Assembly (NCBI GenBank): GCA_963723235.1
Contig: CAVRPV010000019.1
Span: forward strand, 18,077-82,076
Direction of reading: 5' to 3'
DNA: 64,000 bases
From: an uncultured delta proteobacterium
GTDB taxonomy: Bacteria; Desulfobacterota; WTBG01; CAIYCZ01; CAIRTM01
The position numbers and the translations under genes are program-made. Numbering within the stretch: position 1 is the stretch's first letter; the number at the start of each line of letters is the position of its first letter. Below are positions 14,741-36,073 of the stretch, piece by piece. Below the pieces are notes generated by a model. The model did not search any database. It was not told the origin of the DNA and saw nothing but the letters and a program-made list of their open reading frames with translations.

Positions 14741-14827
14741 CCTATCCTCCTCCTGTATAATTCGTTTCTATGTGTACGGCAGGTGCCTGGCTCGCTGGCC
14801 GCTTTAACGAAAAGTCAAAATTGCGGG

Positions 14828-15319
14828 TTACTCCTTATACGCCTGTATCCACTCAATCTCGAGCTTAAATGCCCCAGCCTGCTTGTCGGCGATCAGGAAG
14901 CCTATGGCCTGAATAACACCGGGATTAAGCGGCGGCGCCTCAGGAGACGGTTGCCCCCGGAACGATGCCTTAAATTCACTAAAAGGCGCCTTGATAATCA
15001 TCCACTCGTTAGACGAAACCGCAAAACGGAACTGGTAGGAAAAGCCGCCGAAAGATGCATCGTTCTTCAGGGTCAGCTTGTAGGTTCTGCCGTCGCCTTT
15101 GCAGCGCACGGCAATGCCGCTGAATGCCGAGGCATCCACGGGCACGGCCTGACGCGAACTTGCCGAGCAGAAGCCGCCGTAATTCTCAAGCGACACCACT
15201 CCGGCGAACACGGCCCCGGACGAATCGGCCTTCGTGAACGTGCTGCGCGACACGCCGCCCATAACGCCGTCGTTAATTACCTTCCACTGCTGCAGCTGCT
15301 CGTCGCGTGGAAAAATCAT
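14828..15319 (-). CDS. CIA30 (complex I intermediate-associated protein 30) domain protein
   Basis: 163 aa. WKVINDGVMGGVS...FAGVVSLENYGGFCS pattern typical of the CIA30 family. Confidence 0.75.
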   Translation of the reverse strand: MIFPRDEQLQQWKVINDGVMGGVSRSTFTKADSSGAVFAGVVSLENYGGFCSASSRQAVPVDASAFSGIAVRCKGDGRTYKLTLKNDASFGGFSYQFRFAVSSNEWMIIKAPFSEFKASFRGQPSPEAPPLNPGVIQAIGFLIADKQAGAFKLEIEWIQAYKE

Positions 15320-15436
15320 AAACCATCATCATGCGTGCATCGGACATGGCACTCTCCCCTGAAAACAAATCCTTGCGCATGCTGCCACTATAGGCGGCAT
15401 TTTCACAGGTCGCCTCTATACGCGGCCCAACCCGAG

Positions 15437-15452
15437 ATTTTTCAACAGCCTG
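15437..15452 (+). repeat. Family-1 solo right arm
   Basis: ATTTTTCAACAGCCTG, 7 nt from the stop of the gene at 15460. The sequence upstream has no convincing match to the element core. Confidence 0.5.
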
Positions 15453-15459
15453 TTAAGGC

Positions 15460-16221
15460 TTAGAACTCCGCCGAGGGCGGATAGCTCAGATCCACCAGAA
15501 CGCCGGGCGGTATGCCGACGCCAAGTCCCATTTTCACGGCCACATCCTGCAGGGTAAGATACTCAAGCCAGCGCCCGTTCCTGCGAAGCTTCTGTTTTAC
15601 CTCGGCCTGTGTATAGGGCCTGTCCTTGCTGCCTTCAAGCACATACATATAGCCGTCAAAAAATGCGCGGTACGCGGCGATAAAAAGATCGAGCTTCTCC
15701 GGGCCAAGGTGCATGAGCCTGCACCCGGCCTCCGCCGCAAGCGATGCACCCCAGTGCTCCATGCGATAATGATCGGCGAGGCCCGCGCGCAGGGCCTTTG
15801 TATCAACGCCGAATGTTTCGGCAACACAGTCCATGGCCGTGCGGGCAGCCGCATACGTTTGAGGGTCAGAAACTGCCGGAAAAACATCAAGCATCATATG
15901 ATAGGGGCCCTCGCCGGTCATGCCCCATTCCGTATTGAAATGGCCCATGGGGCACCAGGGGTTTACCGGAAAAATCTCCACCTGAAAGACCATGTAGTCA
16001 ATCACCCGGTCCAGCTCCGGCGGCTTCACCTGGTTGAGCTTCATGTGGGTAACGCTTGCCTTCTCTATGCAGCCGCCCCGAATGACGGCGACATCGGCCT
16101 GGCCCACCTTGAACGGCACGGTTGTGCGAACCAGCTCGCCGCCGCCCGAGGCCTCAAGCAAAGCCCGGATAACCGATTCGCGCGTTTCTTCGACAAACGA
16201 GAAGATTTTCTGGTCTTTCAT
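15460..16221 (-). CDS. Coproporphyrinogen III oxidase (HemF)-like family protein, divergent and short
   Basis: 253 aa. It aligns by eye to HemF blocks: VIRGGCIEKASV (cf. VLRNGGVFEQAGV), PVNPWCPMGHFN (cf. PHNPYVPTSHAN), RRNGRWLEYLTL...LVDLSYPP (cf. RRGRYVEFNLV...ILMSMPP). The central RGIGGLFFD block is not conserved. Confidence 0.55.
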   Translation of the reverse strand: MKDQKIFSFVEETRESVIRALLEASGGGELVRTTVPFKVGQADVAVIRGGCIEKASVTHMKLNQVKPPELDRVIDYMVFQVEIFPVNPWCPMGHFNTEWGMTGEGPYHMMLDVFPAVSDPQTYAAARTAMDCVAETFGVDTKALRAGLADHYRMEHWGASLAAEAGCRLMHLGPEKLDLFIAAYRAFFDGYMYVLEGSKDRPYTQAEVKQKLRRNGRWLEYLTLQDVAVKMGLGVGIPPGVLVDLSYPPSAEF

Positions 16222-21758: not shown

Positions 21759-23699
21759 TTATTTTTTGTAGTAGGTATAGCCCCGCAGCCCGGACTCGTA
21801 GGCGTGCATGATTTTTCGCCGCTCGGCGCCCGTGATCGTGCCCTCGCGCACCGCGTTCTCAGCGGCCTGACGGAACTGGTTCATGAGAACCTTGGTATCG
21901 TACTCAACGTAGGTAAGCACATCGGCGATGGAATCGCCTTCAAGCTCACGCACGAAGTCAAAGCTCCCGTCCTCGTTCATCCGCACGCTCACGATGTTGG
22001 TGTCGCCCAGCAGGTTGTGCAGATCGCCCAGGGTTTCCTGATAGGCCCCGACCAGGAATACGCCCATGAAGTATTCCTCTCCGGGCTTTACCTCGTGCAG
22101 CGGCAGAGTGCTGCGCACGTCGTGCAAATCGATGAACCGGTCTATCTTGCCGTCGGAGTCGCAGGTAATATCGGCCAGGATGGCCCTGCGGGTCGGGCAC
22201 TCATTGAGCCGGTGCACGGGCATGATGGGAAACAGCTGGTCGATGGCCCAGGAGTCCGGCAGCGACTGGAATATGCTGAAATTGCAATAGTAGATATCGG
22301 CCAGGGCGATGTCGATGCCTTCAAGCTCGACCGGCACCTGCTTGATTTTTTTCACCTCACGGGCGATTTTGTTGATGATGTTCCAGAAAACCGTCTCGCA
22401 CAGAGAGCGCTCGCGCAGGCTGATCTCTCCATGCCTGAAAAGCCTCTGCACCTCATCCTTGTAATACAGGGCATCGTTATAATACTCCTGTATGTTCTTG
22501 GTGTTCACCGATGTGTAGACATCCAGCAGGTTCCGCAGCATCTCATGGGAGTCGGCAGGCAGCGTATCCGGTATGCTGAGCGCGTCAAAGCGGCTGACAT
22601 CAAGAATGTTGAACAGCAGAACCGAGTAGTGCGCCACGGTTGCCCGGCCCGACTCGGTTATGATGGTCGGGTGCGGCAGCTGCTTTTCATCGAGGCTCGC
22701 CATGACGATCTCGATGATGTCGGCGCAGTACTCATTCACCGAGTAGTTGCGGCTGCAGCGGAAGTTGGTCTGCGAGCCGTCATAGTCGACGGCCAGGCCG
22801 CCGCCCAGGTCCAGATAGCCCATGGGCGCGCCTTCCATCACCAGCTCGGTGTAGTAACGGCAGGCCTCGTCCACGCCCGCCCGAATGTCCCTGATATTGG
22901 GTATCTGGGAGCCCAGATGATAGTGCAGAAGCTGGAGGCAGTCAGTCATGTCTTCCTGCTTGAGCCTGTCAACCAGCGCGATTATTTCCGAGGTATTCAG
23001 GCCGAACAGGCTCCGGTCTCCGCCTGATTCTGCCCAGTGACCGCCGGCCTTGAGTGAAATTTTCAGCCGCACGCCGAGCCGGGGGGTGATGCCGAGTTCT
23101 TTGGCCCTGCGCAGCACAAGATCAAGCTCGCACGGCATCTCGATCACGATGAAGCATTTAAAACCGAGCTTGATGGCGTACAGGGCGAGGTCGATGAACT
23201 TCTCGTCTTTGTAGCCATTGCAGATAATGCAGGCCTCGGGATCCTTGATCATGGATATGGCGATAATAAGCTCGGCCTTGCTCCCGGCCTCAAGGCCGTG
23301 GTGATAGCTGGCGCCGAAGCGGGTAATCTCCTCGATCACCTGCTGCTGCTGGTTTACCTTGATGGGGTAGACACCCCGGTACTGCCCCTTGTAATTACAC
23401 TGTTTGATGGCTTCATTGAAACTCTCGTGCAGGATGGAGAGCTGGGAGTCAAGCATGTTTTCGATGCGCAATAGGACCGGCATCTCAAGCCCGCGCTCTT
23501 TTATCCCCGAAATAATGTCCATCAGGCTGATGGATTGATTCTCCCGCCCCCTGATCGGCGTGGCGACAACCTCACCCTTGTCGGAAATCGAAAAAAAACC
23601 CTTGCCCCAGTTGGGAATGCCGTAGGCCTCTTTTGAGTTTTCAACCGTCCAGCGGTTCAGCTTGCCGTTTTGTATCAGTGACAGTTCTTTTTCGTTCAT
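21759..23699 (-). CDS. speA: Biosynthetic arginine decarboxylase
   Basis: 646 aa. SpeA-like over the full length (WTVENSKEAYGIPNWGKGFF..., YPIKVNQQ, LDLGGGLAVDYDG). Confidence 0.93.
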   Translation of the reverse strand: MNEKELSLIQNGKLNRWTVENSKEAYGIPNWGKGFFSISDKGEVVATPIRGRENQSISLMDIISGIKERGLEMPVLLRIENMLDSQLSILHESFNEAIKQCNYKGQYRGVYPIKVNQQQQVIEEITRFGASYHHGLEAGSKAELIIAISMIKDPEACIICNGYKDEKFIDLALYAIKLGFKCFIVIEMPCELDLVLRRAKELGITPRLGVRLKISLKAGGHWAESGGDRSLFGLNTSEIIALVDRLKQEDMTDCLQLLHYHLGSQIPNIRDIRAGVDEACRYYTELVMEGAPMGYLDLGGGLAVDYDGSQTNFRCSRNYSVNEYCADIIEIVMASLDEKQLPHPTIITESGRATVAHYSVLLFNILDVSRFDALSIPDTLPADSHEMLRNLLDVYTSVNTKNIQEYYNDALYYKDEVQRLFRHGEISLRERSLCETVFWNIINKIAREVKKIKQVPVELEGIDIALADIYYCNFSIFQSLPDSWAIDQLFPIMPVHRLNECPTRRAILADITCDSDGKIDRFIDLHDVRSTLPLHEVKPGEEYFMGVFLVGAYQETLGDLHNLLGDTNIVSVRMNEDGSFDFVRELEGDSIADVLTYVEYDTKVLMNQFRQAAENAVREGTITGAERRKIMHAYESGLRGYTYYKK

Positions 23700-23714
23700 G
23701 CTGCGTGTCCTTTA

Positions 23715-23892
23715 GGGTGTTGTAAAAGTCTTTTTTTACAGGCTGTTCAAAAATGCGCAGATGCACAGGCGCCCGATATCATTTGTAAGGGCACGGCATG
23801 CCGTGCCCTTACCGTACGCCGCAGTGATCCCGCCATGGCGGGAATAAGCGCAATCCCGCTGCAGCGGGACAGGTGTGCTTTTTTCAACAGCC
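23715..23892 (+). repeat. Family-1 element, copy E (palindrome module + two GGGA hairpins)
   Basis: Outer arm GGGTGTTGTAAAAGTC and left arm at 23741. GTAAGGGCACGGCATGCCGTGCCCTTAC at 23785..23812. TCCCGCCATGGCGGGA and TCCCGCTGCAGCGGGA hairpins. Right arm ends at 23892. Confidence 0.9.
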
Positions 23893-24071
23893 TTCGCGAG
23901 GGCACATTATACCAGTAAACGCACTTCATATCCACAGTTCACTGACATCACGCCAAAAAAACCGCTCACGCTCCGGCCTTTCAATTTTCTTTGCGAACCG
24001 GTAAACAGTCAAGTATACTGTTCCCCGCAACTGCCGCACAACAGACCCATGCTCTATGAAAGGACCATCGA

Positions 24072-25076
24072 GTGAAGGCATTCTGCACACTATTTATTTT
24101 TATGGCACTCTTGCTGTTTTCCGCCAGCCCGGCGATGTCAGAAACACCGCTGCCGGAGCAGGTTGAAAATTCGCTCGGCATGCGCTTTGTCCTGGTGCCG
24201 GCAGGCGAATTTCTGATGGGCAGCGACGAAGATCCCGATTCTCTCGCACAAGCCTATCCGCAGTATGAGCGCCGCCGGTTCCTCATTCTCGGCGACGAGG
24301 CGCCCGTGCACAGGGTCCGCATTACCCGCCCGTTTTACCTTGGCCGGTTTGAAGTAACGGTCGGCCAGTTTAAAAAATTCCTTGCCCTGTCCGGCTACGT
24401 GCCCGAATCCGTGGCCGACGCAACCGGGGGCTACGGCTATAACCGCGACTATGATCCGGCCCAATCCAGACGGGGCGATGCCTTCGAGGGCCGCGACCCG
24501 AAGTATTCCTGGGCAAATCCCGGATTTGCACAAAGCGACAATGATCCGGTGGTCAATGTGACCTGGCAGGACGCGAAAGCCATGGCGGCCTGGCTGAGCC
24601 GCACGGAGGGCACAACATACCGGCTGCCCACCGAGGCCGAGTGGGAGTATGCCTGCCGCGCCGGTACCCGCACGCGCTACTCCAGCGGCGACGACCCGGC
24701 AACGCTGCTCAAGGCGGCCAATGTCTTTGACGCCGACTGCATGCAGAACTGGCTGAAGTGGCAGCAGTACGCTGTGGCAGGCCATGACGGCTTTGCGTTT
24801 ACGGCTCCCGTTGGCAGCTTTGCGCCGAACGCCTGGGGCCTGCACGACATGCACGGCAACGTGTGGGAATGGTGCGCCGACTGGCACAGCGAAACCTATT
24901 ATGCCGATTCGCCCGTTGATGATCCGCAGGGTCCGGCCACGGGTGAGGTGCGGGTGCGCCGCGGCGGGTCCTGGCACACCTGGCCGTTTTACGCGCGCTC
25001 GGCATACCGCAACTGGAACAAGCCCGATACGCGCTACACGCTGGTCGGCATGCGCCTGTTGCGCGAAGCCAAATAG
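24072..25076 (+). CDS. Formylglycine-generating enzyme (SUMF1/FGE-sulfatase) family protein, secreted
   Basis: Signal peptide, GMRFVLVPAGEFLMGS, HDMHGNVWEWCADWH and RVRRGGSWH motifs. Confidence 0.88.
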   Translation: MKAFCTLFIFMALLLFSASPAMSETPLPEQVENSLGMRFVLVPAGEFLMGSDEDPDSLAQAYPQYERRRFLILGDEAPVHRVRITRPFYLGRFEVTVGQFKKFLALSGYVPESVADATGGYGYNRDYDPAQSRRGDAFEGRDPKYSWANPGFAQSDNDPVVNVTWQDAKAMAAWLSRTEGTTYRLPTEAEWEYACRAGTRTRYSSGDDPATLLKAANVFDADCMQNWLKWQQYAVAGHDGFAFTAPVGSFAPNAWGLHDMHGNVWEWCADWHSETYYADSPVDDPQGPATGEVRVRRGGSWHTWPFYARSAYRNWNKPDTRYTLVGMRLLREAK

Positions 25077-25225
25077 AGGCTGATGAAAAAGTCTCTTTAC
25101 ACAGGCTGTTCAAAAATGCATAGATGCAAGGCGCGCGCAATCATGAGGAATGAGGCGTACTTACCGTACGCCGCAGTGACGAATGATAAACGCAACGCAG
25201 CAGATGGGCGTTTTTCAACAGCCTG
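25077..25225 (+). repeat. Family-1 element, copy F, flanked by a perfect 16-bp direct repeat
   Basis: Left arm at 25104 and right arm ending at 25225. ATAGAGGCTGATGAAA occurs at 25073..25088 and again at 25226..25241. Confidence 0.9.
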
Positions 25226-25252
25226 ATAGAGGCTGATGAAACGAAAGGACGT

Positions 25253-25753
25253 GTGATGCTGCTAAAAAAATTATTGGCCCTGCTGATTGTATCCATCGCC
25301 ATACTATCCATGTGCGCAGGCTGCCAGACGCTCCCGCAACCGCCAAAGCCGGATCACCGGGTCACTGAACAGGTGCCCGCCGCGCAGGATATCACCGGGC
25401 CTGCTCCTGGGCAGGCTCCGCCGCAGTCCGCCGTGGGAACCGCCCGCTACTACGCCAACCGCTTCAACGGCAAAAAAACAGCTTCGGGTGAAGTGTTCAA
25501 CCAGAAAAAATTGACCGCCGCCCACCCCACCCTGCCGTTCGGCACGCTGGTGAAAGTCGAAAATCTCGCCAACGGCATATCCGTCATCGTCAAGGTCAAT
25601 GACCGCTGCCGCAAGCATGAGCAAGTTTTTATTGACGTATCACGCGAGGCCGCACTCGAACTCGGCTTTATCAGGCAGGGCACGGCCAAGGTCAGACTGA
25701 CCGTTCTTGCAAATAATCCATCAAGCGAAGTTCCGGCTGCCTCGAAGGATTAA
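25253..25753 (+). CDS. rlpA: RlpA-like lipoprotein (double-psi beta-barrel domain)
   Basis: Lipobox LSMCAGC. GTARYYANRFNGKKTASGEVF...AAHPTLPFGTLVKVENL...VKVNDR. Confidence 0.88.
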   Translation: MMLLKKLLALLIVSIAILSMCAGCQTLPQPPKPDHRVTEQVPAAQDITGPAPGQAPPQSAVGTARYYANRFNGKKTASGEVFNQKKLTAAHPTLPFGTLVKVENLANGISVIVKVNDRCRKHEQVFIDVSREAALELGFIRQGTAKVRLTVLANNPSSEVPAASKD

Positions 25754-25890
25754 AGGCCAGTCCTAGAGTGCGTTGCGCACCATTCACAGCCGCATTACCG
25801 ACGATGTGTATGGCGCGCCCTACGCACTGTCAATTAAATTAATGGATGTCCGCTGTTGACGCATGAAAAGCTGCTCACCGAAACGCGGCT

Positions 25891-25932
25891 GAAAAAGGCA
25901 AGGCTACGCTGCGGACATGCAGCATAGCCTTG
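25891..25932 (-). terminator. Rho-independent terminator candidate for the metallophosphoesterase gene
   Basis: On the minus strand: CAAGGCTATGCTGC-ATGTCC-GCAGCGTAGCCTTG (14-bp stem, 1 G:U pair) followed by CCTTTTTC, 30 nt after the stop. Confidence 0.6.
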
Positions 25933-25961
25933 TTGGGTGGGGTGGTGCTTTGAAAATGGAA

Positions 25962-27626
25962 TTACAGCAGCGGGGCGCCTTCCACAATAACGACAAGTGC
26001 CGGCGCATTGCCGGCGTGGCTGGTGAGGAAATCCCAACCATCGGTGCTGTTGTTCAGCATGGCCCAGCCGTAGTTGGTCTCGCCGTCAGCCCATGCCTGT
26101 ATGGATTTCGTGACATCCACGATGAACGGCGTCGGAAACCCCTTCGGGCAGCTAAACGCCGTATCGCTTTCGCTCAGGGCTTCGATATCGTTTGCTTCAA
26201 CACCGCCGCCGACCATGACGGTCTGCGTCACAAATTGCTTGGTTTTGGGATCATAAAAGGTGACATCGTGCCAAGTGACAGGCTGGGGGGTGAAATCGTA
26301 CCAGGTCGACTTCTCGGTGAACGGCATCAGCATCCGGTGAAAGTTGATAGTGCCAGCCGTCGAGCTCGTTGCTTCGAAAAGTATTTTAGCCGAGGTAATG
26401 GTCGAGCCGGCTGGTATCTGGCCGGGGCCGTTGCCGATGATGCCGGTGAAGGCGAGCAAGCCGTTCACCCGCGAGCCCGAGTCGTCCAAGTCGGTCGTCA
26501 GCGTCATCTCTCCGCCATAGTCAAGGCCTGGATTATTTTCGTTGATTTGAGAGTCGATTGTCCCTTCGTAGCCATTAAGGCGCTCCTGGAAAATATGGGT
26601 CGCCGGTTCGGTAATGGGGTCGGCGGGGGGCAGAGGCGGCCGTTCGGGCTCGTCACCGAAATCATACCTGCTCCAGCGCTTGAATCGCTGTTTCAGATTA
26701 GTGGTAAAGGCGAACTGGCTGTCATCATCCGTTTCGAAATAGGGATCAACGGTTATGATATCCCCATCGTCATCAATGGTGAAGCCGGGGGAAAAGGTTT
26801 TCACCGAAATGGTGCCGTTATCCTCGTTTATGCGAATGAGGCGCATCAGGCCGTTGCCGCCGTTATCGCGGTCCTGGTAGTCGGAAAGCATCTGATAGAC
26901 CGGCTTGTTGTCATCATTATGGGACACGAAGGCGTATTCGGTATGCGTATGACCGTTGAGCACCATGAAAATGCGGGGGTTTTCCCTTATGAATTCATCC
27001 CAGATGATTCGGCCCGTGGGGCCTCTGCCGCCGTACATGACATAATCATGCGTCGAGACAATCACGGGCATGGAACGGTATTTTCTTTTATCCATGATGG
27101 ACTGGGCCCACGAAAAGGCCTCCGCGTCGGGGTCCTTTTGGAAATTTATGTGCAGGAATCTGCGATTTCCCGCCCTGAAGACTTGCGCATGGTTGAGCTT
27201 GTTTGGCGAGGAGCCGATATACCACTTTTTCCCCGCGTAGCTCTCGGGGCCGAGGTATTCTGCAAACTCGGTGCCGTCATGATTACCCTGGCAGATCGAA
27301 TAGGGAAAATCGTCAGGCGCATCGAATAGAGGATCAAGCGCCCACATCGCATTGTTCCACTGCTCCGTGTCGCCTGCGTTATCGACGACATCGCCCAAAT
27401 GCGTCACGAAAACAATATTCTCATTTTTCCTGTTTGCGAGAATCCAGTCAATCTGTGCCTTGAAAATTGGAGTCAGCGCGCTTTCCTCGCTGTAGACCTG
27501 CGTATCGGGAATAGCGACTATAGTGAAGGTTTTCTTGGACTTTGAAGCGCCGCAGACTGCCGGATATGCAGCCAGGGCCAGGAACAAAACAGCCAAGCAT
27601 GTACTGGTTATTTTTCTCATAATCAA
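25962..27626 (-). CDS. Secreted calcineurin-like metallophosphoesterase with a C-terminal DNRLRE-like domain
   Basis: 554 aa. Signal peptide, then IPDTQ, HLGDVVD and QGNHD phosphoesterase motifs. I am less sure of the identity of the C-terminal beta-rich domain. Confidence 0.8.
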   Translation of the reverse strand: MIMRKITSTCLAVLFLALAAYPAVCGASKSKKTFTIVAIPDTQVYSEESALTPIFKAQIDWILANRKNENIVFVTHLGDVVDNAGDTEQWNNAMWALDPLFDAPDDFPYSICQGNHDGTEFAEYLGPESYAGKKWYIGSSPNKLNHAQVFRAGNRRFLHINFQKDPDAEAFSWAQSIMDKRKYRSMPVIVSTHDYVMYGGRGPTGRIIWDEFIRENPRIFMVLNGHTHTEYAFVSHNDDNKPVYQMLSDYQDRDNGGNGLMRLIRINEDNGTISVKTFSPGFTIDDDGDIITVDPYFETDDDSQFAFTTNLKQRFKRWSRYDFGDEPERPPLPPADPITEPATHIFQERLNGYEGTIDSQINENNPGLDYGGEMTLTTDLDDSGSRVNGLLAFTGIIGNGPGQIPAGSTITSAKILFEATSSTAGTINFHRMLMPFTEKSTWYDFTPQPVTWHDVTFYDPKTKQFVTQTVMVGGGVEANDIEALSESDTAFSCPKGFPTPFIVDVTKSIQAWADGETNYGWAMLNNSTDGWDFLTSHAGNAPALVVIVEGAPLL

Positions 27627-27843
27627 GCCTCCTGAAAAAGTGAATGTGTGCGATTCCTTGCTGAAAAAATATTTTCTGATTCAGAATAGCTCCGCATTGT
27701 TAATGCTTTTTAAGCAGCTGGTTAAATTCATCACAAAAAAACGTTAATATACATGCCTATAAAAGAGTATATTTTGATTAAATCGAAGTAATGTCGACCA
27801 ATTGGAGGGCGGCGGGATGCACCGCCCCCGGTGGAATCAGTTC

Positions 27844-28162
27844 TGGGAACCGCCCGCTACTACGCCAACCGCTTCAACGGCAAAAAAACAGCTTCGGGTG
27901 AAGTTTTCAGCCAGAAAAAATTGACCGCCGCCCACCCCAGCCTGCCGTTCGGCACACTGGTGAAAGTCGAGAATCTCGCCAACAGCCTATCCGTCATCGT
28001 CAAGGTCAACGACCGCTGCCGCAAGCACGAGGAAGTCTTTATTGATGTGTCACGCGAAGCCGCGCTCGAACTCGGCTTTCTCAGGCACGGCACGGCCAAA
28101 GTCCGGATTACCGTTGTTAAAATAATCCACCAGACAAAGTTTCGGCAACCGTGCAGGATTAA
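27844..28162 (+). pseudogene. 5'-truncated, frameshifted duplicate of the rlpA 3' two-thirds
   Basis: Collinear with 25434..25753 at roughly 90 percent identity (hand count). It lacks the signal peptide and lipobox. A 1-nt gap near 28116 shifts the frame, and the homologous GGATTAA stop is at 28156..28162. Confidence 0.8.
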
Positions 28163-28172
28163 CTGCTACCGG

Positions 28173-28359
28173 GGTGTTGAAAAATTCTTTTTATACAGGC
28201 TGTTCAAAAACGCACACATGCAAGGCGTGCTATATCATTTGTAGGGGCACGGCATGCCGTGCCCCTACCGTACGCCGTCCTGTCCCGCTCTGCGAGGAGA
28301 GACGAATGATGAGCACAATCCCGCTGTAGCGGGACAGATGGACGTTTTTCAACAGCCTG
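28173..28359 (+). repeat. Family-1 element, copy G (longest; palindrome module + extra hairpins)
   Basis: Outer arm GGTGTTGAAAAATTC and left arm at 28198. GTAGGGGCACGGCATGCCGTGCCCCTAC at 28241..28268. TCCCGCTGTAGCGGGA hairpin. Right arm ends at 28359, directly abutting the TerC stop. Confidence 0.9.
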
Positions 28360-29100
28360 CTATTGCGGATAACTTTTGTGCAGCTCCACGGGCTCGCTGT
28401 TTTTGCGCATGCGCAAATTAAGCGTTTCCACAAAAATTGAAAAAGCCATGGCAAAATAAATATATCCCTTGGGGAAATGAACTTCAACGCCTTCGGCCAC
28501 CAGCGTCGTGCCGATCAGCAGCAGAAAGCTGAGCGCCAGCATTTTTATGGTCGGGTGGCTGTCGACGAAGCGGCTGACCTTGCCGACCGCGAACATCATG
28601 ATAACAACGGAAATAACCACGGCCAGCACCATGATGCTTACCCGGCTGGCAAGCCCTACCGCTGTAATGACCGAGTCAAGCGAGAAGACAATATCAAGCA
28701 GCATGATCTGCACGAGTATGCCCGCAAATGATGCCGCAACCCGCTTGACCTGAACATGTTCTGTCTCGCCCTCCAGCTTATCATGAATCTCAGACGTACT
28801 TTTGCCGATCAAAAAAAGTCCGCCGATAATCAGTATCAGATCGCGCCCTGAGATCTCATTGCCCACAACCGTAAAAAGGGGCGCTGACAGCCGCATAATC
28901 CACGTCAGCGACAACAGGAGCAGAATACGTGAGAGCATGGCAAGCCCCAGACCGATCACCTTGGCTTTTTCCCGCTGTTCATGTGGCAGCTTGCCGGCCA
29001 AAATCGTTATGAACACGATATTGTCGATGCCCAGCACGATTTCCAGTGCCGTTAAGGTGAGAAGCGATATCCAGGCCTGCGTTTCAAAAATCCATTCCAT
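28360..29100 (-). CDS. TerC family integral membrane protein
   Basis: 246 aa. LEIVLGIDNIVFI and LDIVFSLDSVITA repeats typical of TerC/YoaE. Confidence 0.88.
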   Translation of the reverse strand: MEWIFETQAWISLLTLTALEIVLGIDNIVFITILAGKLPHEQREKAKVIGLGLAMLSRILLLLSLTWIMRLSAPLFTVVGNEISGRDLILIIGGLFLIGKSTSEIHDKLEGETEHVQVKRVAASFAGILVQIMLLDIVFSLDSVITAVGLASRVSIMVLAVVISVVIMMFAVGKVSRFVDSHPTIKMLALSFLLLIGTTLVAEGVEVHFPKGYIYFAMAFSIFVETLNLRMRKNSEPVELHKSYPQ

Positions 29101-29201
29101 GACTACCCCATTCTTATATTGAGTATTGGTATTGCATAAAGGGAGACAGCCGCACTTTATGCCCGATAAAAGGGCACAGCCGCACCCTTTTGTTAGAGAG
29201 C

Positions 29202-29600
29202 TTATTCTGCGATTCTTCCGTCTCGAACATACAGGACTATCAGCACCGCGAGATACATCCCGATCGCACCTGTCTGCAACCAGTAGGGCAGTGTTGACTG
29301 GCTTTCTAAGAGTACCGAGGCAAGAGCGTCCGACAGATTAACCGCGCCCAGCCCAAGAACCGTAAGAGCGAGTACGACAATGGCGCTCAGTGCAACGGAG
29401 CGATGCCGCGCTGCAGAGTAAAACAGCGCGATATACGCACATACCGCAAAGGAAATGATCTTATCCTGATAGGCGTAATACGGCGTATCGTAGTATACAA
29501 AAAGAACCGGCACTTTCAGGCCAAAGAAATGTGCCAGTGCCATGCAGCTGAAATACACAACACCGGCCCAAAATGCATACTGTGTTGGCTTTGAATTCAT
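29202..29600 (-). CDS. Hypothetical membrane protein (4 predicted TM helices)
   Basis: ORF with hydrophobic helices. Start taken at MNSKPTQYAFWAGV (29600). I recognise no family. Confidence 0.5.
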   Translation of the reverse strand: MNSKPTQYAFWAGVVYFSCMALAHFFGLKVPVLFVYYDTPYYAYQDKIISFAVCAYIALFYSAARHRSVALSAIVVLALTVLGLGAVNLSDALASVLLESQSTLPYWLQTGAIGMYLAVLIVLYVRDGRIAE

Positions 29601-29717
29601 AAACGTTCTTCGCGCACATTGTATGGTTCCGCCGCATTGCTGCGGCTCAGGCGCGGCCACTTGCCGTCGCCTGCATTCGTCGTGTTTTATTTAAGGCGCG
29701 GCTCTATTTAATCTTCA

Positions 29718-29799
29718 CACCTTCTTACAACAAATCCGCTTCGCTACCTTACACAATATCTACGCACGATCTGTTCTGCTCCAATCATCTTTTTGCGGT
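29718..29799 (-). pseudogene. Remnant duplicate of the nitroreductase gene 3' end plus downstream flank
   Basis: Aligns to 31415..31494. The minus strand 29749..29803 reads YHRKKMIGAEQIVRRYCV*, against FYRKKMLEAEQVVRRYFVR* at the end of the intact gene. Confidence 0.7.
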
Positions 29800-29858
29800 G
29801 ATATTGGGGAACGGTTTTAATATTGCCTGGACCAAATATATTAATGAAAGTTAGCGGA

Positions 29859-31364
29859 TTAACATCCGCAAAATGGCAGCTGCGATGCATACATTGATCG
29901 CCAGTATTTTGCCTGATAATTTTCAGGCCTGATGCTTTTATGCTTTATACGACGCCAGAGCTTTTCCAGATTTCCATATTCTATCCAGTCATCCTCAACA
30001 AAGCCTTCATTGTTAATGTCCGCCTCTCCCATTCGTCTTAAAATTACAGTACTGCTTTCCTTATTTCCCTCAACCACCCATCCCGGAACGCTCAGCTTGA
30101 CGCTATAGTCCCGGCACTCAATCGGTAAAGGCTGAAGCGTGGATTGCCAATAATCACTGTCTTCTGCAAACGAGAGCGCAATGATAAGAGACCGCAGGGA
30201 CCACAAGCAACTGCCCTGACCGGAATATTGATCCAGCAGACGTTCATCAGCTCCACAATATCCCTGCGTCACCGTTCCTGCCCTTAAGGCTCCGTTACGA
30301 ATGAAGTACTGCCAGGTCACATCCATAGCTCGTCGTGCTAACCCGGGCGAGATTAATTTCGAATTTTTATCTGCTGCAATCAAGAGTGGCACTGGCAAAG
30401 CTATGCGATAACAAATACTCCTGCCATAAATGGGAAACCCCGCCGTACTAAATAAATACTGATAATCCTCTGCGAAACGAGTTGTGGCTTTTGTAATAAA
30501 CTCGAGATCCAGCTCTGGCCTGATTTTGCTTAACCAATAAAGTGCGTAGTGTATTCCCCAGGCATTGTAATAATCAAAACGCTCTCCTTCCCTGACCCCA
30601 TCTGTAAACCACCCGTCACCCCGATAAAACTTTTTGATGGATTGATAGTGGTCATCCAATAGCTTCGGGCTGCCCTCTGTACGCCGCAAATCGATCAGCA
30701 CGGCATTAACTAACACAACAAAAAGATGCCAGTTGTTATCTGGGACTCTCTTCTTGTTCACCTGTGCCAACCATCTTGCAATACGCGTTTGCTGCTTTGG
30801 AGCCAGCACATCCCACACCTGTTTTCGCGTTAACCACAGCGTTAAGGCCACATCAGCGGCCTCTACAATGCGCTGATCCCCATGTTTCATTTGACCCCAA
30901 TACTCTCCGGATTGTGGATTCGTCCCCGCAACAATGGCGTCTCTGAGAGTTTTCGCCAAGTCAATCGTTCCGCCATCTTGCAGGTTGAGCTGGTTTGGTC
31001 GACCTGCATATAGCCAGGCACCCATTAAGGGCGCCATACGGGTAAAGCCTTCAACTCTATCGATGAGGCTGCCGTGCGAACTGGGAAGGCCGGGATAATT
31101 TACCAGTGCGCCCGCTTTGCTGCGGTAAAACTGGTACCCCTCGACGAAATACTGAAAAATTGCCTCATAACTTTCAGGGCTATGCTGCTTATCCTGATAA
31201 AAATCAGAGATTAGCTGCTCCCGTTGGGCTGGATAATTCTCGGGGAAAGGTACTGCTCTGAAAGGATATTGGTAAATCCTCCAGCTTACCAGGGACACTA
31301 TACCCAATATCAACAATGCAATGACAGCCAACCTATAACGATCCAAAGTCGCCATGTGTTGCAA
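29859..31364 (-). CDS. DUF2264 domain-containing protein
   Basis: 501 aa. N-terminal TM anchor and DUF2264-like sequence (…RVEGFTRMAPL…, PDNNWHLF, YGRSICYR). Visibly AT-richer than the surrounding genes. Confidence 0.7.
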   Translation of the reverse strand: MQHMATLDRYRLAVIALLILGIVSLVSWRIYQYPFRAVPFPENYPAQREQLISDFYQDKQHSPESYEAIFQYFVEGYQFYRSKAGALVNYPGLPSSHGSLIDRVEGFTRMAPLMGAWLYAGRPNQLNLQDGGTIDLAKTLRDAIVAGTNPQSGEYWGQMKHGDQRIVEAADVALTLWLTRKQVWDVLAPKQQTRIARWLAQVNKKRVPDNNWHLFVVLVNAVLIDLRRTEGSPKLLDDHYQSIKKFYRGDGWFTDGVREGERFDYYNAWGIHYALYWLSKIRPELDLEFITKATTRFAEDYQYLFSTAGFPIYGRSICYRIALPVPLLIAADKNSKLISPGLARRAMDVTWQYFIRNGALRAGTVTQGYCGADERLLDQYSGQGSCLWSLRSLIIALSFAEDSDYWQSTLQPLPIECRDYSVKLSVPGWVVEGNKESSTVILRRMGEADINNEGFVEDDWIEYGNLEKLWRRIKHKSIRPENYQAKYWRSMYASQLPFCGC

Positions 31365-31414
31365 ATTATCCCCGCCTGAAACAGTTCATCTCGCCCATGC
31401 GACTTGCTAATCGC

Positions 31415-31494
31415 CACCTTCTTAAAACAAGACCTACCTTACCTGACAAAATACCTGCGCACGACCTGCTCGGCTTCAAGCATCTTTTTGCGGT
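31415..31494 (-). repeat. Partner of the 29718..29799 direct repeat (authentic nitroreductase 3' end + flank)
   Basis: CACCTTCTTA...CTACCTTAC...CATCTTTTTGCGGT is shared with 29718..29799. In the 43-nt coding block I count 7 mismatches. Confidence 0.7.
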
Positions 31495-32209
31495 AAAAGG
31501 CAAGCTGCTTGTCGAAGTTTGAAAGCGGGTGGCCGATTTTGAAGCCGATGAACATCTGATCGAACCAATCCCGAAGCATGCCTTTGCACGCTGCGTTGTA
31601 GCACTGCGGCATGACCACGGCATCGCGCGGCTGGCGCGGCGGTATGCCCGGCATTTTCAAGGACCCCTTGCCCAACACCAGCGTTGTAAGCGGCAGCACG
31701 CCTTCAGGCAACGTAAGCTTTTCCACAAGAAAGGCGATGTCGAGCAAGCCGGTACGCCCGGTTTCAGACAGCATGATGCTTTGTATGCCCAGGGCCTCAG
31801 CCGCCAGGTTCATGCTCATGGCGGCGAGCCCCGCGTTAAAAACAGCCAGGCTCATGTTGATCGCGGGAGTCTCTGCAAAATCGCTGAAGAGCTCGCTCAG
31901 GCGGTTCTGGTCGGCGCAGATGACTATAGCATACGTGCCCTTGAACGGAATCGGCCGCTCAAAGGTCTGATGCCATTGAGAGCGGTCAAAGGTAATAAAC
32001 GACCAGGTCTGCAGGTTGACCGTGCTGGGCGCGAACCGGCCCGCATCCAGAATAGCGTCAAGGTCCTGCGGCGAAATGGCACCGGGTGCGAAGCTGCGGC
32101 AGCTGCGGCGACTGAAGATAAGCTTCAGCGTTTCGGGCAGGTCAGTGCGGGATGCCGAGGGCGCAGCGCCCGTAAACAGGGCCAGAAAATTTTTTATCGC
32201 TCGAAGCAT
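31439..32209 (-). CDS. Nitroreductase family protein
   Basis: 256 aa. RRSCRSF...PSTVNLQTW motif characteristic of the nitroreductase fold. Confidence 0.8.
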   Translation of the reverse strand: MLRAIKNFLALFTGAAPSASRTDLPETLKLIFSRRSCRSFAPGAISPQDLDAILDAGRFAPSTVNLQTWSFITFDRSQWHQTFERPIPFKGTYAIVICADQNRLSELFSDFAETPAINMSLAVFNAGLAAMSMNLAAEALGIQSIMLSETGRTGLLDIAFLVEKLTLPEGVLPLTTLVLGKGSLKMPGIPPRQPRDAVVMPQCYNAACKGMLRDWFDQMFIGFKIGHPLSNFDKQLAFYRKKMLEAEQVVRRYFVR

Positions 32210-32244
32210 AGAATATTACCAATAAAGCAGTAAATTTACCTTCA

Positions 32245-32323
32245 GTCATTCCGGCGAAAGCCGGAATCCAGGGGACTCCGATAAACACAGAAGCACTGGA
32301 CACCGGTTTTCACCGGTGTGACG
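32245..32323 (+). repeat. Family-2 twin-hairpin element
   Basis: GTCATTCCGGCGAAAGCCGGAATCC ... GGACACCGGTTTTCACCGGTGTGACG. Confidence 0.85.
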
Positions 32324-32378
32324 ACTGTTGGCATCAGCATTAATACTCGCAGCATGGCACATGCACGCACATTCAGTT

Positions 32379-32486
32379 GTAGGCCGGACTAAGCTTGCCC
32401 TGAGCGAAGTCGAAGGGCGAAGTGAGTCCGGCGCCTTTTGCATTAATCAAATTTCGCCGGACACGCTGTCGCTTTGTCCGGCCTAC
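32379..32486. repeat. Family-3 REP doublet (REPIN-like), GCCGGAC class
   Basis: GTAGGCCGGACTAAGC...GAGTCCGGCG ... CGCCGGACACGCTGTCGCTTTGTCCGGCCTAC. Confidence 0.8.
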
Positions 32487-32541
32487 GCTCTAAACATACA
32501 TTAATAACACCGTCGTAAAGGTTTCGATTGTCACGTTTCAG

Positions 32542-33069
32542 TCATTCCTCCGGCAGGGCATAGATTCCCGGCAGGGCCCGGTAGCGCTCGTCAAAATCAA
32601 GCCCGCAACCGACTACGAACACATCACCAACCTCAAAGCCGAAATAATCAACTGCAACCGCTACTCTGCGGCGGCACTGCTTGTTCAAAAGCGCGCACAC
32701 GCGCAGCGATGACGGAGAGCGCTTATGGAGCTCTTCGATCAGGTGCGCAAGCGTTTCGCCGGTATCGACAATATCCTCGACAATCAAAACGTCACGGCCC
32801 CGAATGTCTGTACTCAAATCTTTTTCAAGGGTACTGACACCGGTTGATTCCCGGCATGCGCCGTAGGACGCGACTTGAACAAAATCAATTGTAACGTCGA
32901 GGTCAAGGTTGCGGATGATGTCGGCCAGAAAAACAAAGCAGCCTTTTAAAACGCCGACAATGACAAGATGTCTGCCCTGATAGTCCGCGCTGATCCGCCC
33001 GGCAAGCTCACGAATGCGCTGCTCAATCTGCGCCCGGGGAAAAACAAGCTGAAGAGTGTCTGAGATCAT
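32542..33069 (-). CDS. hpt: Hypoxanthine phosphoribosyltransferase
   Basis: 175 aa. VLIVEDIVDTGETL PRPP-binding motif and Hpt-like sequence throughout. Confidence 0.92.
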   Translation of the reverse strand: MISDTLQLVFPRAQIEQRIRELAGRISADYQGRHLVIVGVLKGCFVFLADIIRNLDLDVTIDFVQVASYGACRESTGVSTLEKDLSTDIRGRDVLIVEDIVDTGETLAHLIEELHKRSPSSLRVCALLNKQCRRRVAVAVDYFGFEVGDVFVVGCGLDFDERYRALPGIYALPEE

Positions 33070-33234
33070 GCGCGTAAATTCCTGTCTGCAGTTGGCCTGG
33101 GATTGCCGAACATGATTTCACGAGCACGACGGGCTTGTCAATAAGGAATTGATTTTATGAGGGTTTTTTTATAAGATGGGTCAATTTTAACGCACCGTAC
33201 TAACTACTGAGCAAAGACGCAAAAGCACCTGACA

Positions 33235-33393
33235 GGATATTGAAAAAGTCTCTTTGTACAGGCTGTTCAAAAATGCGCAGATGCAAGGCGCACGAAGTTG
33301 TGAGGAATGAGGCGTACTTTTCGTACGCCGCAATGACGAACAATGAGCGCAATCCCGCCATGGCGGGACAGATGCGTGTTTTTCAACAGCCTG
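33235..33393 (+). repeat. Family-1 element, copy H
   Basis: Outer arm GGATATTGAAAAAGTC and left arm at 33261. GGCGTACTTTTCGTACGCC hairpin and TCCCGCCATGGCGGGA hairpin. Right arm ends at 33393, 25 nt before the valS ATG. Confidence 0.9.
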
Positions 33394-33418
33394 CTAATCA
33401 CCTGAAAACGGACATAAC

Positions 33419-36073
33419 ATGAGCGATACTGAACTGGACAAAAGCTACGACCCGCATACGGTCGAACAGAGATGGTATGAAATCTGGAAGGACAAGGGTT
33501 TCTTTAAAGCCTCAGGAGATAGCGGCGCCGAGCCCTATTGCATCGTCATCCCGCCCCCGAACGTTACCGGCTCCCTGCACATGGGCCATGCCCTGAACAA
33601 CACCCTGCAGGACATTTTGATCCGCTTCAAGCGCATGCAGGGCTGCAACACCCTGTGGCAGTGCGGCACCGACCATGCGGGCATCGCGACCCAGAACGTG
33701 GTGGAGCGCGATCTTGCAAAAGAAAACATGACACGCTTTGACCTTGGCCGCGAGGCTTTTATCGAGCGCGTCTGGCAGTGGCGGGCCCAGTACGGCGGGA
33801 TTATCGTCAATCAGCTCATGAAACTCGGAGCCTCGTGCGACTGGTCGCGCGAGCGCTTTACCATGGATGAAGGCTGCTCGCGCGCCGTGCGTGAAGTATT
33901 TGTCACGCTGCATGCAGAAGGCCTGATCTACCGGGGTGAAAAACTGATCAACTGGTGCCCGCGCTGCCACACGGCCCTGTCCGATCTGGAAGCCGAGCAT
34001 GAAGACATTCAGGGCAATCTCTACTACATCCGATATCCATCACCTGACGGATCGGCCCACCTGTGCGTTGCCACGACGCGGCCCGAGACCATGCTGGGCG
34101 ATACGGCCATTGCAATCAACCCCGAAGATGAGCGCCACCTGAACTGGCAGGGAAAATGCGTGGTGCTGCCGCTCATGAACCGCGAGATTCCCGTTATCGC
34201 CGACAGCTATGTTGACCTTGAATTCGGAACCGGGGCCCTGAAAATCACCCCGGCGCACGATCCCAATGACTTTGAAATCGGGAAAAAATATGGCCTGCCG
34301 ACAATCAAGGTCATCGACAATAACGGCTGCATGAGCGCAGAGGCCGGACCCTACGCGGGCCTTGACCGCTTTGAGGCCCGCACAAAAATTGTTGCCGATC
34401 TTGAAGCCCTGGGCCTGATTGAAAAAATCGAACCGCACATGCACGCGGTCGGGCACTGCTACCGCTGCAAGAGCATTGTTGAGCCCAATCTGTCCATGCA
34501 GTGGTTTGTGGATGTCAAGCCCCTGGCCGAGAAGGCCATCGAGGCCGTCAAGGACGGCCGCACGCGCATCATTCCGTCCACCTGGGAAAAAACCTATTTT
34601 GAATGGATGAACAACATCCGCGACTGGTGCATCTCGCGCCAGATCTGGTGGGGCCACCGCATACCGGCCTGGTTCTGCAGCCAGTGCGATCATATCACGG
34701 TCGCAAAAGATGATCCTGAGGCCTGCGCCGCATGCGGCAGCCCCGACATCACGCAGGAAAGCGATGTGCTGGATACCTGGTTCAGCTCGGCCCTGTGGCC
34801 GTTTTCAACCCTGGGCTGGCCGGATAAAACCCCGGAGCTCGCAAACCTGTATCCCACGTCCTGCCTGGTAACCGGATTTGACATTCTCTTTTTCTGGGTG
34901 GCCCGCATGATGATGATGGGCCTTAAATTCATGGGTGACGTGCCCTTCCGGGACGTCTACATTCACGCCCTGGTGCGCGACGCGCACGGCCACAAGATGA
35001 GCAAATCCAAGGGCAACGTGATCGATCCCCTGGAGATTATTGAGAAATTCGGCACAGACAGCTTCCGCTTCACCCTGACGGCCATGGCTGCCCAGGGCCG
35101 CGATATCAGCCTGTCTGAAGAGCGCATTGAAGGCTACCGCCATTTCGTCAACAAGCTCTGGAACGCTTCGCGCTTTGCGCTCATGCATGTTGAGGGCTGC
35201 ACCCCCGGCCTGCCAGAAGGCAGCCTCGAGCTGAAGGACCGCTGGATTTTGAGCCGGCTCAACAGCGTTATCATTCAAGTACGTGATGCCCTTGAGGGCT
35301 ATCGCTTTAACGAAGCAGCCAATGCCCTGTACCAGTTCGTGTGGCGTGAATTCTGCGACTGGTATGTTGAAATGGCCAAGCCGTCCCTGTATGACCGCGA
35401 CAATGCCGCTCAGCGCGGCTGCACCCAGCAGGTGCTCTTTCATGTGCTGCGCACGATAGTCGAGCTGCTGCACCCGATCATGCCCTTTGTCACCGAGGAA
35501 ATCTGGCAAAAACTGCCGGGTAAAGGTGAAAGCATCGTGGTGACCGCGTTCCCGCAGGCTGACCGTGCGCGCATACTGCCCGATGTTGAAGCCAGCATGG
35601 AGCACCTCTTCCAGTTTGTTACGGCCGTGCGCACTATACGCGCTGAGATGAACATAGCGCCGTCGGCCCGGCCGGCTGCTGACCTCTTGTGCCATGACAG
35701 CATTGTTGAAGCGCTGCTGCGTCAGCACACCGACCTGATCTGCAGCCTTGCAGGCCTTTCTCAGGCCACGGTGCACGAAACATTCGCACGCTCCAATACG
35801 GCTGCGGCGGGTGTTGTTGACGCCGGTGAGGTGTTTGTGGAACTTGAAGGCATCATTGATTTTAATGAAGAAGGCAAACGCCTGGAGCGCGAAGCCGCCA
35901 AACTGAAAAAAGATATCGATTTTATCAGCGGCAAGCTGGGCAACCCAAAATTCGTGGATCATGCCCCGGCCGACATCGTGCAAAAAGAGCGTGAAAAGCT
36001 CTGTGTGATTGAAGGCAAACAGGCAAAACTTCAGGAAAACATCGCGCGCATCGCTTCGCTGCGCACGTGCTGA
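33419..36073 (+). CDS. valS: Valine--tRNA ligase
   Basis: 884 aa. HIGH-type motif PPPNVTGSLHMGHA, KMSKS motif, C-terminal coiled coil. Confidence 0.96.
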   Translation: MSDTELDKSYDPHTVEQRWYEIWKDKGFFKASGDSGAEPYCIVIPPPNVTGSLHMGHALNNTLQDILIRFKRMQGCNTLWQCGTDHAGIATQNVVERDLAKENMTRFDLGREAFIERVWQWRAQYGGIIVNQLMKLGASCDWSRERFTMDEGCSRAVREVFVTLHAEGLIYRGEKLINWCPRCHTALSDLEAEHEDIQGNLYYIRYPSPDGSAHLCVATTRPETMLGDTAIAINPEDERHLNWQGKCVVLPLMNREIPVIADSYVDLEFGTGALKITPAHDPNDFEIGKKYGLPTIKVIDNNGCMSAEAGPYAGLDRFEARTKIVADLEALGLIEKIEPHMHAVGHCYRCKSIVEPNLSMQWFVDVKPLAEKAIEAVKDGRTRIIPSTWEKTYFEWMNNIRDWCISRQIWWGHRIPAWFCSQCDHITVAKDDPEACAACGSPDITQESDVLDTWFSSALWPFSTLGWPDKTPELANLYPTSCLVTGFDILFFWVARMMMMGLKFMGDVPFRDVYIHALVRDAHGHKMSKSKGNVIDPLEIIEKFGTDSFRFTLTAMAAQGRDISLSEERIEGYRHFVNKLWNASRFALMHVEGCTPGLPEGSLELKDRWILSRLNSVIIQVRDALEGYRFNEAANALYQFVWREFCDWYVEMAKPSLYDRDNAAQRGCTQQVLFHVLRTIVELLHPIMPFVTEEIWQKLPGKGESIVVTAFPQADRARILPDVEASMEHLFQFVTAVRTIRAEMNIAPSARPAADLLCHDSIVEALLRQHTDLICSLAGLSQATVHETFARSNTAAAGVVDAGEVFVELEGIIDFNEEGKRLEREAAKLKKDIDFISGKLGNPKFVDHAPADIVQKEREKLCVIEGKQAKLQENIARIASLRTC

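Follow-up and report, generated by a model that had tools for sequence, protein, structure and literature searches.

Displaced gene ends beside single-gene inserts in an uncultured delta proteobacterium: probable scars of gene gain through one homologous and one illegitimate joint

We investigated a stretch of 64,000 nt (positions 18077-82076 of contig C19; hereafter the window) from a metagenome-assembled genome (MAG) labelled G000, whose assembly of 2.8 Mb is 83% complete and whose nearest named relatives are uncultured "delta proteobacterium" or Thermodesulfobacteriota MAGs from lakes. In the window two conserved genes, rlpA and a nitroreductase (NR) gene, are each followed by an insert carrying a single gene and then by a second, diverged copy of their own end. 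The left part of the locus reads FGE-sulfatase gene (+), rlpA (+), metallophosphoesterase (PE) gene (-), partial rlpA (+), a family-1 repeat and terC (-); the right part reads small membrane-protein gene (-), a fragment of the NR end, DUF2264 gene (-), NR (-), hpt (-) and valS (+). An earlier note, made from the sequence alone, had described these two structures as a gene, an insert and a duplicated 3' end. Both are real, and their repeats were confirmed at 89% identity (E = 5e-117 against the whole genome) and ~80% identity. We consider that both probably are scars of gene gain, left by one homologous crossover in the conserved gene and one illegitimate joint, either by homology-facilitated illegitimate recombination (HFIR) or by a Campbell-type event. 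Judged from their sequences, the distal copies appear to be displaced remnants and not fresh duplicates; a second copy of each gene end does exist, as had been claimed, but with its native flank it is better described as displaced than as duplicated. Most likely the scars do not represent a new mobile element, and record a way of acquiring genes that is already known, though seldom documented.

The intact NR gene occupies 31439-32209 on the minus strand, with its stop codon at 31439-31441. The proximal copy of the repeat (31415-31494, -) comprises the last 55 nt of NR, stop included, and 24 nt of spacer, and it is of the allele type found in strain R, a sister strain represented by ENA contig L032 from an independent assembly. 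It is followed by insert 2 (29800-31414, -; 1,615 nt; GC content 0.47), which consists of a DUF2264/BcGHD gene (29859-31364, -; Pfam PF10022) with 50 nt upstream and 60 nt downstream of it. Beyond the insert lies the displaced NR 3' remnant (29699-29799, -), of which positions 29718-29799 match the intact end and positions 29699-29717 are a genus-conserved spacer. The two copies (31415-31494 and 29718-29799; 80 and 82 nt) are ~80% identical, and the remnant was the sole other genomic match to the NR end (whole-genome self-BLAST, E < 1e-6). The repeat had been presented as a copy of the gene end; this is correct for its 55 coding nucleotides, but 24 nt of spacer belong to it as well, and because the spacer is included, DUF2264 was inserted 24 nt past the NR stop, in intergenic DNA. 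An assembly artefact was ruled out, as the longest exact match between the NR copies (13 nt) is too short to mislead an assembler.

The NR remnant continues into TGAAGATTAAATAG, a spacer common to R, the congener G002 and contig L063, while the proximal copy breaks into insert DNA. Its stop codon and post-stop sequence read GTAAGGTAGCGAAGCGGATTTGTTGTAA, which is the 2-nt-longer allele class of L055-L059 and L066. Within this "6-nt class", TAGCGAAGCGG is identical to L058 (an 11-mer) and GTAAGGTAG is as in L066. The intact NR end, in contrast, is of the class shorter by 2 nt, like R, up to 9 nt from the junction. Over 17 codons the remnant and the intact end differ by 5 synonymous and 4 non-synonymous changes, and the stop codon was kept. 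This codon pattern has P = 0.024 under strict neutrality and P = 0.12 if half of the divergence fell on a selected copy. It is supportive only, and the allele-class evidence is the stronger argument.

The same layout was found at rlpA. The intact gene (25253-25753, +) encodes a lipoprotein signal and a DPBB_1 domain. Its 3' part is present twice (25434-25753 and 27844-28162; 320 and 319 nt), with 89% identity overall and 92% across the first 275 nt, and with a single 1-nt deletion near 28118. The length of ~320 nt that had been given for this repeat holds for the match within the genome, but the unit itself is larger: the remnant starts at ~27820, which is ~25 nt further 5' than the intragenomic repeat indicates, and the unit of strain R extends ~60-110 nt beyond the stop codon. 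The proximal copy (25434-25863, +) would comprise the 320 nt of rlpA and ~110 nt of native spacer, here called Z, and ends at TTGACGCA; its extension past the stop is deduced from the sequence after R's remnant and from the terC-DUF3108 spacer of G002. Insert 1 (25864-27819, -; ~1.96 kb) contains the PE gene (25962-27626, -; 554 aa; Pfam Metallophos and CBM96-like), which has its own AT-rich upstream region and is the sole open reading frame (ORF) between the rlpA copies. The displaced rlpA 3' remnant is a pseudogene (27820-28162, +), whose ORF (27831-28244) leaves the frame near its end. In this genome a family-1 copy (28172-28360) has replaced the native spacer after it. The remnant of strain R leads straight into spacer Z and DUF3108, which form the native neighbourhood in the congeners G001 and G002. 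An assembly artefact was ruled out here too, the arrangement being found also in the independent assembly of R.

What lies between the copies is, in both cases, foreign to the genus. Orthologues of the two cargo genes were searched in 60 relatives, from genus to phylum, and none was found for either PE or DUF2264. Strain R has a PE copy, 96% identical and in the same rlpA-PE-rlpA' context; other PE homologues reached at most 75% and never adjoined rlpA, standing among other phosphatases or between unrelated flanks. The best DUF2264 homologue was 64% identical and lay within a polysaccharide-synthesis gene cluster, and the DUF2264 insert was absent from R and from every NR locus fetched. Empty sites exist for both inserts. 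G002 has FGE-rlpA-terC with a single rlpA of 167 aa, and rlpA is single in G001 also; NR is followed by its native spacer in G001, G002, R and ~15 metagenomic contigs. The inserts are, as had been described, single-gene units without a recombinase of their own; they are lineage-specific, and their presence or absence is polymorphic.

Case 1 is old. Since the rlpA-PE-rlpA' arrangement is common to this genome and R, it predates the split of the two strains, between which synonymous divergence (dS) is 0.12-0.18 for FGE, PE and terC. The two remnants have been put out of frame independently: here 1 nt is deleted close to the 3' end, and the remnant of R has gained 1 nt in an A-run and also has a G-to-D change in PFGT. 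Being broken differently in each of two strains, the rlpA remnant is a pseudogene; that of R is annotated as a 114-aa DPBB protein. Over the first 110 nt identity is 97% between the two rlpA copies of this genome but only ~82% between them and the copies of R, and 12 "concerted" sites were counted against 2 paralogue-specific sites. These sites and this similarity show that gene conversion between intact rlpA and the remnant is ongoing. It explains why dN/dS (the ratio of non-synonymous to synonymous divergence) is <1 between the two rlpA remnants, and it makes dN/dS of the rlpA copies unreadable as a clock. Outside the conversion tracts, the first 13 nt of the remnant hold 4 G002-type bases (ESV), while the same edge is G001-type (QSA/QSV) in both intact copies. 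The intact genes have diverged as well: dS of NR against R is 0.39 (0.12-0.18 for neighbouring genes), and rlpA is 82% identical to that of R at the nucleotide level (flanks 93%). These values suggest repeated allele replacement at the genes bordering the variable interval. A sliding-window search of this genome against R found no clear mosaic breakpoint inside NR.

The footprint was not confined to the window. A screen of the whole genome by self-BLAST for low-copy local direct repeats found two further cases in this genome, and the sister strain has another. At adk-uvrC (C6:418500-424500; L038), the last 29 nt of adk and the first ~397 nt of uvrC are present twice (96.5%). The repeats enclose a truncated acyltransferase-3 gene, a second insert with an HMGL-like gene is adjacent, and adk abuts uvrC in four relatives (G001, G002, G003 and G011). 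The uvrC copies show 4 synonymous and 3 non-synonymous differences. The leftover, which carries a 4-nt insertion, is the 5' portion of the gene and lies upstream of intact uvrC; contrary to what had been supposed, the pattern is not specific to 3' ends. At the DUF2333 locus (C1:52500-62500; L037) the gene is followed by three ORFs of membrane/PMT_2 type (5.1 kb) and by a 67-nt copy of its 3' end (92.5%); G002 is without the ORFs, and G001 has them without the 67-nt copy. In strain R (L032, reverse complement, 13561-16214) a repeat of 837 nt (96.5%) places an EEP gene (Exo_endo_phos) on either side of a 983-nt terC segment. Contig L067 is the single-copy empty site for this EEP-terC-EEP structure, and terC therefore stands at different positions of the locus in different strains. 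Overall, the repeats range from 67 to 837 nt, either gene end may be affected and one copy is always intact. The leftovers are tied to native flanking DNA, and where it could be judged they are of another allele type. In an E2 acyltransferase gene of this genome (C10:409882-411662) the 5' end, which encodes the lipoyl domain, is repeated 1.2 kb upstream, between E1-beta and E2 (312 nt, 81%); the extra copy could come from a longer E2 gene that was broken, or be one more displaced remnant.

How such structures would arise can be proposed as follows. Incoming DNA from a related strain would bring an intact version of the end of the conserved gene together with the foreign gene. At one end it would recombine homologously inside or beyond the conserved gene (rlpA or NR); its other end would be attached by an illegitimate joint, within the copy of the gene that the recipient already had. 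The old gene end of the recipient would be incompletely deleted and would remain on the far side, joined to native downstream DNA. A recipient gene end too diverged to pair would act as heterologous DNA, and part of it may survive. The remnants are non-functional and decay, and the long one (rlpA) undergoes gene conversion with its intact counterpart. Linear incoming DNA would correspond to HFIR and circularised DNA to a Campbell-type single crossover, and the data fit either. The DNA may have been taken up by transformation; a ComEC gene is present in the assembly. The earlier note had named two candidate mechanisms, a recombinase encoded elsewhere and HFIR. The latter fits best, because the distal copies behave as the ends of other alleles and not as copies of the adjacent gene, while no shared site was found that would speak for a recombinase acting in trans.

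HFIR has been described in natural transformation (de Vries and Wackernagel 2002; Prudhomme et al. 2002; Meier and Wackernagel 2003; all as cited in PMC5361080). The present structures resemble it in that homology to a conserved gene anchors one side, the foreign segment measures 1-3 kb, the other side is joined illegitimately and no recombinase is encoded by an element, in a genome with DNA-uptake machinery (ComEC). They differ from it in that they are natural footprints recognized by comparison and in that the recipient gene end is retained as a remnant. Displacement of 3' ends is known at Rhs, contact-dependent inhibition (CDI) and type VI secretion system (T6SS) effector loci, and HFIR was proposed as its cause (Jackson et al. 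2009; Kirchberger et al. 2017, PMC5361080). There, as here, an intact gene is followed by new DNA and by the displaced old 3' end, and the event recurs at one locus. However, the anchors found here are genes of housekeeping type (rlpA, nitroreductase, uvrC and DUF2333) rather than polymorphic toxins, immunity genes and arrays are lacking, and one case displaces a 5' end. Campbell-type insertion-duplication would likewise produce homology, insert and homology, with hybrid copies from two sources, but it needs a circular intermediate in which a fragment of the gene and the cargo are linked, and no such intermediate was observed here.

Several points weigh against gene gain by one homologous and one illegitimate joint. 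No donor-type genome, with rlpA and PE or NR and DUF2264 but without a remnant, was found among the contexts of the closest homologues checked. The NR remnant is ~78-83% identical to all 17 alleles, which leaves its source allele unplaced, and gene conversion has removed most of the original allele signal of rlpA (2 paralogue-specific against 12 concerted sites). Under a realistic null the excess of synonymous changes is weak evidence, with P = 0.12 and 0.22 for the single tests and ~0.04 for the two combined. Moreover, two independent junctions lie at most 2-3 nt apart in spacer Z, and the motif (G/A)CGCA(C)AG occurs at several junctions, a possible hint of a preferred breakpoint. The MAG being 83% complete, a recombinase could have been missed. 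Finally, published HFIR experiments are said to report mostly deletion of recipient DNA and not retained partial copies.

We think it unlikely, but worth serious attention, that the inserts were instead made in situ with duplication of the target, either by double illegitimate recombination or by template switching as in microhomology-mediated break-induced replication (MMBIR) or fork stalling and template switching (FoSTeS). Rejoining upstream of the point of departure would duplicate 80-840 nt, and selection would have kept those events that left one intact gene. Such a process accounts for the B-X-B' anatomy, for the variable repeat length (80, ~430, ~425 and 837 nt), for the involvement of either gene end and for the lack of element hallmarks, and it requires no donor with a native "gene + insert" arrangement, of which none was found. 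It also agrees with the 96.5% identity of the copies in the two youngest cases (uvrC and R's EEP) and with the fact that all 5 polarisable uvrC differences are on the branch of the remnant. However, copies made in this way should be identical at birth, yet at NR the remnant and the adjacent intact end are of different natural allele classes. Later allele replacement cannot explain this difference, because the R-type sequence of the intact end extends to 9 nt from the junction. The 5' edge of the rlpA remnant, G002-type where the intact copies are G001-type, is equally unexpected, and no Ku gene was found in the assembly.

Site-specific capture is quite improbable by our estimate. It would involve a recombinase acting in trans, like those used by integrative mobile elements exploiting Xer (IMEX), by pdif modules or by integrons, or else a degraded island that has lost its integrase and that brought along a substitute end for the target gene, in the manner of e14 in icd or of tRNA-gene islands. 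The order of intact gene, insert and displaced, diverged 3' end is exactly what such elements, with a substitute gene end in their attP, leave behind. The genome also has two Xer-like recombinases, which are the only Xer-sized tyrosine recombinases (PF00589) in the assembly (83% complete) and are encoded on other contigs, C10 and C6. Against this, each insert has one cargo ORF (Metallophos or DUF2264), and no integrase, integrase remnant or excisionase gene was present inside either of them. Neither intI nor attI was found beside the array, and the window region has no PF00589 gene. No transposase ORF was found. The best end-to-end matches for terminal inverted repeats were no better than shuffles in all five inserts, and neither the NR repeat nor the cassette ends gave an attC-like fold better than shuffles (z = -0.9, -1.0 and -0.4). 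A dif-like 28-bp site was found neither at the junctions nor elsewhere with relaxed patterns, a weak test given that the genome's own dif was not identified. Repeat lengths of 80 to 837 nt and the involvement of 5' or 3' gene ends also count against it.

The junctions were inspected for a shared short core motif, a check that the earlier note had proposed. No common core sequence was seen across the ~14 junctions inspected, only the weak recurrence of (G/A)CGCA(C)AG at some of them, and a shared 8-mer was within chance expectation for that many junction pairs (our estimate is ~0.1). The two junctions that coincide in spacer Z, to within 2-3 nt, are that between the proximal rlpA copy and insert 1 and that between R's terC insert and the first EEP copy (EEP1). 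A spacer Z stretch of ~40 nt (CTGTCAATTAA.TTAATGGAYGTCC...TTGACGCA; window 25833-25863 and L032, reverse complement, 9871, 12237 and 15351) ends exactly at these two junctions. The coincidence could be chance or could reflect a preferred breakpoint, and it counts in favour of site-specific capture as far as it goes. The ~40-nt sequence "ATTAATGGAYGTCC...TTGACGCA" had been considered as a dispersed site and was rejected, for it belongs to spacer Z, the native terC-DUF3108 spacer of G002.

Slightly less probable still is that the structures are recurrent products of an unrecognised host process with preferred breakpoints. Such a process could consist, for example, in a nuclease or recombinase that acts in trans, or in a capture of incoming DNA that is coupled to replication and makes long, variable target duplications. 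The basis for it is the number of cases, four in a 2.8-Mb genome and one in the sister strain, together with the two junctions 2-3 nt apart. If true, it would be a distinct, integrase-independent route of cassette capture and not generic HFIR. Least probable of all is that resident DNA was simply duplicated in tandem and later suffered deletions and decay. Although R's EEP-terC-EEP could be derived from a G002-like order by one tandem duplication and two deletions, this explanation requires several extra events, leaves the copies' different allele types unaccounted for and fails on the foreign DNA that intervenes in both cases.

Like e14 and phage 21 in icd and the islands in tRNA and tmRNA genes, the structures keep the host gene intact and have its diverged, displaced 3' end beyond the insert. 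Unlike them, they have no integrase or element body, no common core was seen at their junctions, they contain single cargo genes, and their repeat lengths vary tenfold. With integron cassettes, IMEX and pdif modules they share single-gene units without a recombinase of their own, clustered at one locus, but no attC fold, attI/intI or dif-like end site was found. Insertion sequences (IS), miniature inverted-repeat transposable elements (MITE) and transposons, including IS1634-type elements with long target duplications, differ in having inverted repeats and a transposase, and none were detected here.

Both cases lie in an interval that is bracketed by conserved genes. On the left is the FGE-sulfatase gene (24072-25076, +; Pfam PF03781), which is 93% identical to that of R at the nucleotide level and syntenic with rlpA in G002 and R; on the right, spanning 32542-36073, are hpt (32542-33069, -) and valS (33419-36073, +). 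The interval between rlpA and NR is hypervariable, its content being different in nearly every relative examined, in agreement with the proposed local hotspot. It contains vapBC, DUF3108 and an AAA ATPase in G001. In G002 it contains terC, DUF3108 and the membrane protein; the NR gene of G002, which lies on a different contig, has EEP and a small gene beside it. Strain R has PE, DUF3108 and EEP-terC-EEP, without DUF2264 and without the small membrane-protein gene. The arrangement is NR-terC in L063, NR followed by 550 unrelated nt and terC in L066, and NR-EEP in L067. As had been described, the two sites in the window are separated by the family-1 copy at 28172-28360, by terC (28360-29100, -; Pfam TerC), whose position in the locus differs among G002, R, L063 and L066, and by the small membrane-protein gene (29202-29660, -), which has no Pfam family and among the relatives searched occurs only in G002. 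Integrase-free hotspots of horizontal transfer between conserved core genes were reportedly recognized by Oliveira et al. in 2017. The present locus is similar in that its conserved flanks (FGE-rlpA and NR-hpt-valS) bracket content that differs in almost every relative; it is unlike them in its visible partial gene copies, which would reveal a one-sided and not a two-sided homologous exchange.

Some other features of the locus were observed. The spacer downstream of NR is conserved genus-wide (L052, L054-L056, L059, L065, G002 and R) though the next gene varies; ~60-100 nt after the stop it reads ..GG.TTTGTT.TAA.AAGG..TGAAGA.TA.ATAGAA.CGTC.., and it may serve in regulation or as a terminator. 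Directly after the rlpA stop of strain R (L032, reverse complement, 9518-9785) there is an insertion of 268 nt, not present in this genome, which holds the ATTCCGG...CCGGAAT twin-hairpin repeat previously named family 2. The family-1 repeat (~150 nt) occurs in the window at 25077-25229, 28172-28360, 23715-23900 and 33235-33396 and at many other sites of the genome. It was multi-copy in 36 of the 41 genomes searched across the class, with 80-90% identity, unusually conserved for a MITE-like element, and its copies are insertion-polymorphic among this genome, R and G002. The copy at 25089-25225, which is not at this spot in R or G002, is flanked by a perfect 16-bp direct repeat, ATAGAGGCTGATGAAA (25073-25088 and 25226-25241), that includes the FGE stop codon. 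An Rfam scan of 23000-34000 gave no match at E <= 0.1, so that neither the repeats nor the family-1 element corresponds to a known RNA.

A single instance of these structures would not surprise a specialist. If gene gain by one homologous and one illegitimate joint is the correct explanation, the locus would be a natural record of how bacteria add single genes without obvious mobile elements. The remnants would be datable, and they would help to find and order acquisitions and to recognise allele replacement and gene conversion. Once recognised, fewer of them would be mis-annotated as genes, as happened with the 114-aa DPBB protein of strain R. "Att-like" direct repeats of a gene end alone, moreover, would not be evidence for an integrase.

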